Source of the DNA: a virus
Lineage: Duplodnaviria > Heunggongvirae > Uroviricota > Caudoviricetes
Length of the DNA: 51,465 nt
Reading direction: 5' to 3' (one strand)
Virus record (IMG/VR): IMGVR_UViG_2872152978_000009
Below are positions 20,403-22,274 of this stretch, piece by piece; within the stretch, counting starts at the first letter, position 1, and each line of letters starts with the position of its first letter. Made by a program: the position numbers and the translations under genes. The notes beneath the pieces were generated by a model, which was given only the letters and a program-made list of their open reading frames with translations, made no database searches and was not told where the DNA came from.

Positions 20403-22274
20403 ATGGTGGAAAGAACCATGGCATTTAAACACTATGATGTTGTCAGGGCGGCGTCGCCGTCAGATCTTGCGGAAAAGCTGACACATAAACTGAAAGAGGG
20501 CTGGCAGCCGTTTGGTAGTCCGGTGGCCATAACCCCTTATACCCTGATGCAGGCGATTGCAGCAGAAGGTGATGTGGTCGTCAGTGGTGCAACTGAGCCG
20601 GAGTGGTACTACGTCATCGTACTGGCCGGGCAATCCAATGCCATGGCTTACGGTGAAGGGCTTCCGCTTCCGGATTCTTACGATGCGCCCCACCCACGTA
20701 TTAAGCAACTGGCCCGTCGCAACACAGTGACTCCCGGTGGTAAAGCATGCGCATTTAACGACATCATTCCGGCAGACCACTGCCTGCATGATGTTCAGGA
20801 TATGAGCGCACTGAATCATCCGAAGGCAGACCTGAGCAAAGGGCAGTACGGCTGTGTCGGCCAGGGCTTACATATTGCCAAAAAACTGCTTCCGTATATC
20901 CCGAATAACGCGGGGATCCTGCTGGTACCATGCTGTCGTGGTGGTTCGGCATTCACCCAGGGCGCGGAGGGGACATTCAGTGCGGACACGGGGGCCAGCC
21001 AGGATTCGGCACGCTGGGGTGTGGGTAAACCGTTATATCAGGACCTGATCGCACGCACCAAAGCGGCATTACAGAAGAACCCGAAAAATGTGTTGCTGGC
21101 GGTGTGCTGGATGCAGGGCGAATTTGACATGAGCGCTGCCACCTACGCACAGCAACCGGACCTGTTCACGGCCATGCTGAAGCAGTTCCGTACTGACCTT
21201 TCCGGATTTAACGCGCAGTGCCATGGCGGCAGTGCTGCAGTTGTACCGTGGATTTGTGGCGACACGACGTATTACTGGAAAAACACATACGGCACACAGT
21301 ATGACTCCGTCTACGGCGCGTACAAAAACAGGGAGAGCGACAACGTTTTCTTTGTGCCGTTCATGACCGACGGTAACGGCAACAACACGCCCACCAACTT
21401 ACCGGCAGAAGACCCGGATATTGCTGATGCAGGTTATTACGGCGCGCAATCCCGTAGTAATGGTAATTGGGTATCGTCAAATCGTCCGACACATTTCAGT
21501 TCATGGGCGCGCAGGGGCATTATTTCGGATCGCCTGGCAACCGCTATTCTGAACGCAGTTGGTCGAACCAGCGCCTTCATCAGCGGTACCGCACCGGAGA
21601 TTAAACCCTCGCCCGGCGGCGACACGCCATCGGGGCCGTCTGATGGTGACACATCCGTTCGTACAGTCTCCCTGCTGCCGACAGCCGGAGAGGCTGCTGC
21701 GCAGGGCTGGACCATCACCGGCGGCAGTGTTGCGCTGGAAGATGGTGTGTTTAAGGTTACCAAGCAGAGCAATAAAACCTGGTCCCTGATGCATCCGGTG
21801 GATGACGCAGTCTCCCTGCTGACACGGGGTGGCAGACTGAGCTGTAAGTTTCGACTGTCAGGCGCACTGACCAACAACCAGTTCGGTCTGGGAATTTATC
21901 TGTATACCGATGTAGCGTTACCTGACGTCGTGGCGATGACCGGGACTGGTAACCCGTTCCTGATGTCGTTCTTCACCCAGACCACAGACGGCAAACTGAA
22001 TCTGATGCATCACAAGAAAGCCGGAAACACAAAGTTGGGCGAGTTCGGGAATTACAGTAACGACTGGCAGACGCTGGAGCTGGTGTTCACCGCCGGCAGT
22101 GCCACGGTTACTCCGAAACTGAATGGTGTGGCTGGCCCGGCATTCCAGGTCATAAAAGACAGTCTGACACTGGGGCTGAATGCGCTGACGCTGACGGATA
22201 TTACCAAAAATGCAGCGTATGGCGTTGAGATAGAAAGTCTGGTGCTGGAGATAAATGCACCGGCATCATCATAA
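20403..22274 (+). CDS. nanS: Prophage sialate O-acetylesterase NanS-p-like (N-terminal DUF1737-like + SGNH/SASA esterase domain)
   Basis: 623-aa; GQSN catalytic-serine motif (VLAGQSNAMAYGEG); position downstream of the tRNA cluster as in Stx-phage nanS-p; upstream AT-rich promoter region. Confidence 0.8.
   Translation: MVERTMAFKHYDVVRAASPSDLAEKLTHKLKEGWQPFGSPVAITPYTLMQAIAAEGDVVVSGATEPEWYYVIVLAGQSNAMAYGEGLPLPDSYDAPHPRIKQLARRNTVTPGGKACAFNDIIPADHCLHDVQDMSALNHPKADLSKGQYGCVGQGLHIAKKLLPYIPNNAGILLVPCCRGGSAFTQGAEGTFSADTGASQDSARWGVGKPLYQDLIARTKAALQKNPKNVLLAVCWMQGEFDMSAATYAQQPDLFTAMLKQFRTDLSGFNAQCHGGSAAVVPWICGDTTYYWKNTYGTQYDSVYGAYKNRESDNVFFVPFMTDGNGNNTPTNLPAEDPDIADAGYYGAQSRSNGNWVSSNRPTHFSSWARRGIISDRLATAILNAVGRTSAFISGTAPEIKPSPGGDTPSGPSDGDTSVRTVSLLPTAGEAAAQGWTITGGSVALEDGVFKVTKQSNKTWSLMHPVDDAVSLLTRGGRLSCKFRLSGALTNNQFGLGIYLYTDVALPDVVAMTGTGNPFLMSFFTQTTDGKLNLMHHKKAGNTKLGEFGNYSNDWQTLELVFTAGSATVTPKLNGVAGPAFQVIKDSLTLGLNALTLTDITKNAAYGVEIESLVLEINAPASS

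Follow-up and report, generated by a model that had tools for sequence, protein, structure and literature searches.

When a prophage carries a sialic acid esterase gene in its late region, does this gene act as independent cargo with its own control region, or does it belong to the late programme of the phage and perhaps even to its particle? This question is raised by a 51,465-nucleotide stretch of DNA from a virus of the Caudoviricetes (IMG/VR record IMGVR_UViG_2872152978_000009), which was analysed as a whole and is referred to here as the window. The window is a lambdoid prophage that begins at the integrase gene, and a related prophage in another strain adjoins ompW. It contains a gene of the nanS-p type that an earlier note, made from the letters of the sequence, had described as a sialate O-acetylesterase cargo gene with its own AT-rich upstream region. 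The best explanation of our observations is that the gene encodes an intact NanS-p esterase that would be made by Q-driven late transcription and released by lysis, and that the AT-rich DNA next to it is a separate iraM moron. We give this explanation a probability of about 0.88.

The nanS-p gene and its product

The longest open reading frame (ORF) of the locus covers positions 20403-22274 on the plus strand and has 623 codons for amino acids, in agreement with the earlier note. The true start is very probably the second ATG of this frame, at 20418, which gives a nanS-p coding sequence at 20418..22274 and a product of 618 amino acids (MAFKHYDV...). This start is preferred because the homologues in RefSeq and GenBank begin at that ATG, because the Pfam and PHROG alignments open at residues 6-8 of the long form, because a Shine-Dalgarno-like GGTGGA lies 7 nt 5' of it, and because the cryo-electron microscopy (cryo-EM) model of the orthologue gp84 from phage phi24B opens at Ala2 of MAFKHYDV. 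Residue numbers below refer to the 618-aa form unless the long form (623 aa) is named. RefSeq WP_000874316.1, annotated as 'SASA family carbohydrate esterase', shares 100% identity with the 618-aa product, which matches PHROG 143 with 1141 bits. The exact protein is already in RefSeq, and its identification as NanS-p is already known. NCBIfam yielded no esterase model, the sole match being noise (E=0.13), and a single-sequence AlphaFold2 run on the 618-aa protein returned a meaningless model (mean pLDDT 31.9, pTM 0.23) that was not used. The GC content of the gene is 0.55, compared with 0.52 for the whole window.

The product matches three Pfam domains, each above its curated cutoff, and this is the layout of prophage NanS-p enzymes to which the earlier note had referred. 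The N-terminal DUF1737 domain (20418..20570, plus strand, aa 1-51) is recognised by PF08410 with 58.8 bits against a cutoff of 24 (aa 8-55 of the long form) and contains a loop, GSPVAITP-YTLMQAIAAEG, that we assign to anchor-loop class A below. It is followed by the SASA or SGNH type II catalytic domain (20592..21554, plus strand, aa ~59-379), which matches PF03629 with 49.6 bits, cutoff 24.8, over aa 71-267 of the long form. The C-terminal lectin-like jelly-roll domain, DUF6645 (21681..22259, plus strand, aa ~422-614), matches PF20350 with 70.1 bits (aa 473-583 of the long form). The search against characterised proteins proposed in the earlier note supports the same layout: the solved structure of E. 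coli NanS/YjhS (3PT5) matches aa 64-384 of the long form with E=9e-125, and the crystallised C-terminal domain of the phi24B NanS-p (6YP6) matches aa 427-619 of the long form with E=1e-30.

The predicted SGNH/SASA motif GQSNAMAYGEG is found at residues 76-86 of the long form. The catalytic blocks are GQSN at 71-74, CCRGGSAF at 172-179, WMQGEFD at 231-237 and RPTH at 356-359, with the codons of Ser73 at 20634-20636 and of His359 at 21492-21494 on the plus strand. When an 11-residue offset is applied to the chain numbering of 3PT5, Ser73 and His359 align with Ser19 and His301 of NanS, and Gln72 aligns with the oxyanion-hole residue Gln18. Block V reads R-P-T-H and not D-x-x-H, hence there is no Asp three residues before the His. 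The earlier note had treated the lack of a Ser/His/Asp triad as grounds for rejecting the assignment. Of this triad the Ser and the His are present and the Asp is absent, exactly as in authentic NanS, where Ser19 and His301 are present and the catalytic Asp is missing (PMC9063846, PMC10017367). The RPTH form of the block has also been recorded before, in the NanS-p of phage Stx2-86 (PMC10462455). Since NanS, the founding member of the family, deviates in the same way, the triad rule was mis-specified and the missing Asp is no argument against NanS-type activity; the fitting test for the family is the alignment of Ser and His, and both align. By every criterion that can be applied to a sequence, the product belongs to the NanS-p family, and the gene is intact.

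Function, expression and the upstream region

By analogy with its relatives, the enzyme would hydrolyse acetyl esters at the 9-O (and 7/8-O) positions of sialic acids, both in free neuraminic acid with 5-N-acetyl and 9-O-acetyl groups (Neu5,9Ac2) and in mucin-bound form. Catalysis would be carried out by the Ser73-His359 pair, with an oxyanion hole made up of Gln72 and the block-II Gly as in NanS, while the lectin-like C-terminal domain is proposed to bind carbohydrate. Every NanS-p allele of EDL933 and O104:H4 that has been tested is an active esterase: these enzymes remove O-acetyl groups from Neu5,9Ac2 and from the glycans of bovine submaxillary mucin, and they support growth on Neu5,9Ac2 (PMC8065619).

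The gene lies in the late region of the prophage, between Q and the tRNAs on one side and the lysis cassette on the other. A place downstream of the tRNAs had been claimed for it, and a tRNA-Met/tRNA-Arg pair is indeed located ~1.06 kb 5' of nanS-p. The late antiterminator gene Q (16686..17507, plus strand, 273 aa, Pfam PF03589 with 171.6 bits) is followed by tR'-like terminators, which a terminator scan placed at 17541-17557 and 17590-17605. A strong intrinsic-terminator-like hairpin of 9 bp, with 7 GC pairs and a subsequent T-run (19767..19788, plus strand), sits between the tRNAs and iraM/nanS-p and is analogous to a phi24B terminator annotated upstream of stx. No signal peptide was found in the product, whose N-terminus is the DUF1737 domain. 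Because a signal peptide is lacking, because terminators follow both Q and the tRNAs, and because no plus-strand promoter is predicted, it seems likely that nanS-p is transcribed by Q-antiterminated read-through from pR' upon induction and that the enzyme gets outside at cell lysis. The position of the gene and the behaviour of its orthologues are consistent with this: orthologous nanS-p mRNA rises together with stx when phages are induced with mitomycin C or norfloxacin (PMC10462455, PMC8065619). Surviving siblings could then take up the de-acetylated Neu5Ac via the nan regulon, as published for orthologues.

The upstream DNA is AT-rich, as the earlier note had stated, with a GC content of 0.31-0.35 across 19850-20450. 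That this DNA is the control region of nanS-p does not follow. It contains, on the minus strand, a gene of the iraM anti-adapter family (19823..20158, 111 aa, GC 0.35), which matches the IraM model NF007393 of NCBIfam with 162 bits (cutoff 121, aligned over residues 1-110 of 111). The same ORF has no match in Pfam; in homologous loci in RefSeq the same minus-strand gene is annotated as anti-adapter IraM. A gene of a family of RpoS stabilisers lies antisense within the late operon of the phage. The divergent intergenic region between the two genes (20159..20417, 259 bp) has a GC content of 0.29. A promoter-like site that faces iraM runs on the minus strand from 20266 to 20238, and at the same threshold the promoter scan found no sigma-70-like site on the plus strand within 20159-20417. 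In K-12, iraM is activated by PhoP under Mg2+ starvation. A PhoP-box-like repeat at 20254-20270, upstream of iraM, is the sole site with one mismatch in the 51-kb window and overlaps the -35 element of the minus-strand promoter-like site. However, sites with up to 2 mismatches are not enriched in the window (10 against 9.1 expected), and for this reason we regard the repeat as a lead only. Taken together, these observations describe the AT-rich block best as an iraM moron, acquired horizontally and equipped with its own regulatory DNA, that lies in the opposite orientation in a variable slot that holds stx in Shiga toxin (Stx) phages, and not as a nanS-p control region. The AT-richness reported earlier is real, but it appears to belong to the neighbour.

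Several points weigh against this explanation. Consensus matching in AT-rich DNA, as used in the promoter scan, is crude, and a weak promoter or one outside the sigma-70 consensus could escape it. The esterase activity and the expression of the window allele are argued from orthologues. At the positions of the aromatic residues Y510, Y515, Y540 and F611, for which sugar binding has been proposed in gp84, the window product has F, Y, F and a gap. Two of the four are therefore Phe for Tyr and one is missing; the sugar-binding site appears partly kept, and the ligand specificity of the C-terminal domain may differ from that of gp84. Finally, two IS2 copies in the window (see below) may disturb induction or lysis and thereby reduce the release of the enzyme.

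DUF1737 and the phage head

The term cargo gene has itself become doubtful, since the orthologue gp84 of phi24B is a decoration protein of the capsid and since, as described here, the class of DUF1737 co-varies with the type of phage head. In phi24B gp84 is an abundant virion protein that is anchored through DUF1737; hexamers of this domain plug the central hexon of each facet of the T=9 capsid via Tyr42 of the anchor loop, and the esterase part is later cleaved off after Gly54, beside the sequence SISSP (bioRxiv 10.64898/2026.04.10.717836). The authors of that preprint assumed that DUF1737 marks phi24B-like particle architectures (bioRxiv 10.64898/2026.04.10.717836). The head module of the window is of a different kind. 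It is of the lambda type, with a gpA-like terminase, a lambda-family portal, an S49 protease, a gpD-like decoration protein (ORF at 32170-32517, plus strand) and the major capsid protein (MCP) gpE (32575-33603, plus strand, Pfam PF03864 with 222.9 bits). The MCP of the window has no detectable sequence similarity to that of phi24B and does not qualify as phi24B type by PF13252.

To learn whether the N-terminal domain fits the head, we surveyed 160 viral-contig loci with 10-kb flanks and classified in each the anchor loop and the downstream head module. The loci come from two samples chosen by similarity to two queries and are mutually related. Three classes of anchor loop were distinguished: class A, PVAITPYTLMQ, found in the window; class B, ALISTAGYGAEF, found in phi24B; and class C, PFSSYTDDGAAL. 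The heads were sorted into H1 (lambda gpE), H2 (HK97-like with a protease-MCP fusion), H3 (ClpP-MCP fusion) and H4 (phi24B type, PF13252). Among 62 non-redundant combinations of protein and head, class A was paired with H1 in 31, with H2 in 14, with H3 in 2 and with H4 in none; class B occurred with H4 in 7 and with H2 in 1, and all 7 class C proteins had H3 heads. Three loci depart from the pairing: L041 and L131 combine class A with H3, and L155 combines class B with H2. DUF1737 is also the part of the protein that predicts the head best, with a bias-corrected mutual information with head type of 0.76 bits, compared with 0.52 for linker 1, 0.32 for the C-terminal domain, 0.30 for linker 2 and 0.26 for SASA. 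None of 5000 shuffles attained the observed value for DUF1737, in a test that ignores the kinship of the loci. The pairing holds when the esterase is held nearly constant: within a single gp84-like SASA cluster class A goes with H1 or H2 in 10/11, class B with H4 in 6/7 and class C with H3 in 7/7. It is likewise obeyed by 11/11 named phages, of which ten were fetched independently and the eleventh, phi24B, also served as the reference for H4.

Named phages illustrate how local the change is. Bodies of the gp84 type, 97-99% identical, carry class A with an H2 head in BP-4795, Stx2c_JNE090279, EH2246 and WGPS8, class C with H3 in ASU11, and class B with H4 in Stx2_EH0337 and phi24B. In a sliding-window comparison of BP-4795 and EH0337 the identity is 72-92% upstream, falls to 37-73% over nt 53-284, rises to 92-100% at nt ~344 and stays there past the stop codon, which leaves a divergent patch of ~250-300 nt that covers the anchor loop and the linker. 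EH2246 and ASU11 are 99.4% identical from Q to stx2, yet they differ in both DUF class and head type. Linkage to the head genes as the sole cause of the association was considered and rejected: the esterase and C-terminal domains lie nearer to the head genes and show the weaker association, and the near-identical flanks of the patch between phages with different heads make flank linkage an insufficient explanation. The simplest reading of the pairing is selection for anchors that match the head, while the esterase/lectin body, judged from these comparisons, recombines freely between phages. This pairing goes beyond what the phi24B preprint describes.

From here it is a further step to the particle of the window. 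We infer from the company that class A keeps with lambda-type and HK97-type heads that it may tether the protein to capsids likewise. On this reading the class A DUF1737 would bind the exterior of a lambda-type capsid and display the esterase and lectin domains, and the particle would bind or process O-acetylated mucin sialoglycans in the manner of bacteriophage adherence to mucus (BAM), with the benefit to the lysogen being secondary. This is compatible with the enzymology. It is favoured by the role of gp84 and its DUF1737 anchor in phi24B, by the rank of DUF1737 class as the best predictor of head type, by the unbroken rule in the named phages, by near-identical bodies that carry A, B or C according to the head, and by the confinement of the divergence to one short patch with near-identical DNA on either side. 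On the other side, we found no virion proteomics or cryo-EM in the literature for carriers with lambda-type or HK97-type heads, and a search for virion proteomics that lists the esterase in EHEC phages, among them the siphovirus phi330, likewise gave nothing. Class A goes with two sequence-unrelated MCP families (gpE, PF03864, and HK97-like, PF05065), which is odd for a specific anchor, and in phi24B the binding of gp84 is confined to the flat hexon at the centre of T=9 facets. The anchor loop of the window is 3 aa shorter, so that Tyr42 of gp84 aligns to a gap. Moreover, the head of phage lambda has T=7 symmetry and no central facet hexon. The three exceptions in the survey and the relatedness of its loci, by which the shuffle test overstates independence, count in the same direction. 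We therefore consider display on the lambda-type capsid a serious possibility that falls somewhat short of an even chance. The same caution applies to the more general picture of NanS-p as a modular capsid-display enzyme, whose class A domain might tether the esterase to a lambda-type siphovirus capsid and whose modules would be swapped in the linker; the odds are slightly against it.

If the pairing does reflect physical binding, a widespread 'metabolic' prophage gene would really encode an enzyme of the virion surface. Capsid display would then shift the study of NanS-p in mucus colonisation and phage ecology, and the phi24B observation would extend to a large population of lambdoid E. coli prophages.

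Less likely readings: cargo with its own promoter, or an adsorption aid

A different view, closer to the idea of cargo, is that nanS-p is a lysogenic-conversion moron that works autonomously: it would be expressed without induction of the lysogen, as a host-interaction factor, from its own promoter in the AT-rich DNA and independently of the late programme. It fits with this view that lysogens carrying nanS-p grow better on Neu5,9Ac2 (PMC8065619, PMC10462455), that -10-like hexamers are abundant in AT-rich DNA, and that the plus-strand terminator at 19767-19788 lies just upstream, as would be expected for a self-contained unit. However, the AT-rich DNA is accounted for by the opposite-strand iraM and its promoter, and the intergenic region offers no promoter-like site towards nanS-p. 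The expression of the orthologues tracks stx and Q induction, the enzyme has no secretion signal and would need lysis to act outside the cell, and its N-terminal domain is structural in phi24B. We thus regard an autonomous moron as unlikely. Still far less credible is a role as adsorption aid, in which the esterase would strip O-acetyl groups from the bacterial O-antigen or capsule and ease access to the receptor, a hypothesis raised in PMC8065619 and in line with the presence of the enzyme on the phi24B virion, because there the enzyme sits on the capsid and not on the tail, the characterised substrates are sialic acids, and the catalytic domain is a close homologue of NanS.

Organisation of the late region

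Late expression of an intact NanS-p esterase beside a separate iraM moron remains our preferred explanation, and the gene order around it gives it a context. The late region reads Q, tR'-like terminators, methyltransferase, tRNA-Met, tRNA-Arg, a truncated third tRNA, a terminator, iraM on the minus strand, nanS-p, IS2 and the lysis genes. The Q protein carries a DnaJ-like CxxCxGxG zinc-finger region. The DNA methyltransferase gene (18082..19140, plus strand, 352 aa, Pfam PF01555) belongs to a module that has likewise been described in some Stx2a prophages (PMC10462455). By length alone, the 273-aa Q and the 352-aa methyltransferase match rare variants of the Stx2a prophage of strain 00-3076 (PMC10462455). 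ARAGORN predicts tRNA-Met(CAT) at 19181-19256 and tRNA-Arg(TCG) at 19264-19340, both on the plus strand. Homologues of the former are annotated as tRNA-Ile (ileZ-type) in RefSeq E. coli and some Stx phages and as tRNA-Met in others; the tRNA-Ile annotation presumably implies a lysidine-modified CAT anticodon.

The junction behind these tRNAs is best seen against Stx2_EH2246, an Stx2a-converting phage with the order Q, methylase, three tRNAs, stx2AB, iraM and nanS-p, in which the minus-strand iraM adjoins stx2; the window has the same order minus stx. In blastn comparison the two are 94.6% identical as far as nt ~42 within the third tRNA. In the window this gene, a tRNA-Arg in Stx2 phages, is truncated after ~42 nt (19355..19396, plus strand; blastn against LC567837). 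A filler of 180 bp (19397-19576), unrelated to Stx2_EH2246, stands at the place of stx2AB, and homology resumes ~46 bp past the stx2B stop. The RefSeq annotation of the homologous locus L001, of strain FDAARGOS_1248, has a DUF3927 mini-ORF within the filler. Judged from this alignment, the window is the stx-less counterpart of a Stx2a-phage late region, and loss of stx or its original absence would both fit. The upstream sequence was long enough for comparison in 123 viral loci. In the slot directly 5' of nanS-p, 36 of them have iraM on the minus strand, 21 have stx and 67 have neither of the two, one locus with both iraM and stx being counted twice. Between the late tRNAs and nanS-p there is thus a swap site that can hold stx, iraM or other morons. 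L001, which is otherwise collinear with the window, has extra sequence between the tRNAs and iraM (6686-6956 against window 19594-19790) that comprises ~200 bp from a partial duplication and a further ~270 bp, and this would be another sign of a recombinationally active slot. The tRNA-iraM-nanS-p arrangement is covered at >=80% of its length in 590/5,426 complete E. coli genomes.

Downstream of nanS-p, 55 bp after its stop codon, lies an IS2 of 1331 bp (22330..23660, plus strand), flanked by the 5-bp target duplication GTGGG at 22325-22329 and 23661-23665 and missing from L001. A second copy is found in the early region (12427-13757, target duplication AAGAT). The two copies are in direct orientation, are 100% identical over their first 300 nt and bracket 8.6 kb with hokD-region genes, Q, the methylase, the tRNAs, iraM and nanS-p. 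A composite transposon was considered and rejected, because each copy has its own 5-bp target duplication. Recombination between the copies would delete Q and nanS-p. The copy between nanS-p and the holin may be polar on the lysis genes, which form a cassette at 23683..25968 with plus-strand ORFs for a P21-type holin S (23683-23976), DUF1327 (23981-24325), lysozyme R (24669-25202) and Rz (25501-25968).

On its own, an ordinary and already catalogued NanS-p allele carries little weight. Three features are less ordinary: an iraM moron occupies the stx slot, the third tRNA is cut short at the junction, and DUF1737 pairs with head type.

Comparison with known systems

One possible parallel is a functional one, to T4 Hoc and other mucus-binding decoration proteins of capsids (BAM model), and has been discussed for gp84 (bioRxiv 10.64898/2026.04.10.717836): a dispensable protein of the capsid surface that can bind glycans. 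T4 Hoc has no sequence relationship to the window product and no enzymatic domain, and for the window product the association with the capsid is putative. Chromosomal E. coli NanS (YjhS, 3PT5) shares with the window product the catalytic domain from end to end, including the GQSN block, the His block and the lack of a triad Asp. Unlike the window product, it is a single-domain product of the nanCMS operon, without DUF1737 and without the lectin-like domain. In species-representative genomes the full three-domain protein was found in Escherichia only, while the catalytic domain alone, as in chromosomal NanS, is found in E. coli, Shigella, E. ruysiae, Proteus and Edwardsiella.

The NanS-p proteins of the 933W/phi24B type are 52-56% identical to the window product (53% for phi24B gp84). 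Both gp84 (vb_24B_21) and the 933W protein (z1466, L0105) have DUF1737, SASA and a lectin-like domain with conserved catalytic blocks, and residues 1-34 of gp84 are near-identical to the window product. The difference begins at the anchor loop, where the window has ITP-YTLMQ, 3 residues shorter than STAGYGAEFIQ of gp84, a class B loop with Tyr42 in its GYG tip. The window product does have a Tyr, Y41, although Tyr42 of gp84 aligns to a gap, and the E-G pair is conserved. The linker of gp84 contains the SISSP cleavage motif, whereas that of the window is 11 residues shorter and has no SSP motif. Block V reads RASH in gp84 and RPTH in the window, and the T=9 podovirus capsid of phi24B (PF13252) stands against lambda gpE in the window.

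The closest phage relatives are the NanS-p proteins of Stx1a-converting phages, H-19B and Escherichia phage JLK-2012, with 87-89% protein identity; the JLK-2012 gene is annotated yjhS. They share with the window the three-domain layout, a class A DUF1737, the short linker and the RPTH block, and their gene likewise sits between Q/tRNAs and the holin. Their heads, however, are HK97-like with a protease-MCP fusion, while the window has lambda gpD/gpE, and their upstream slot is filled by stx1 or tciA/tciB where the window carries iraM.

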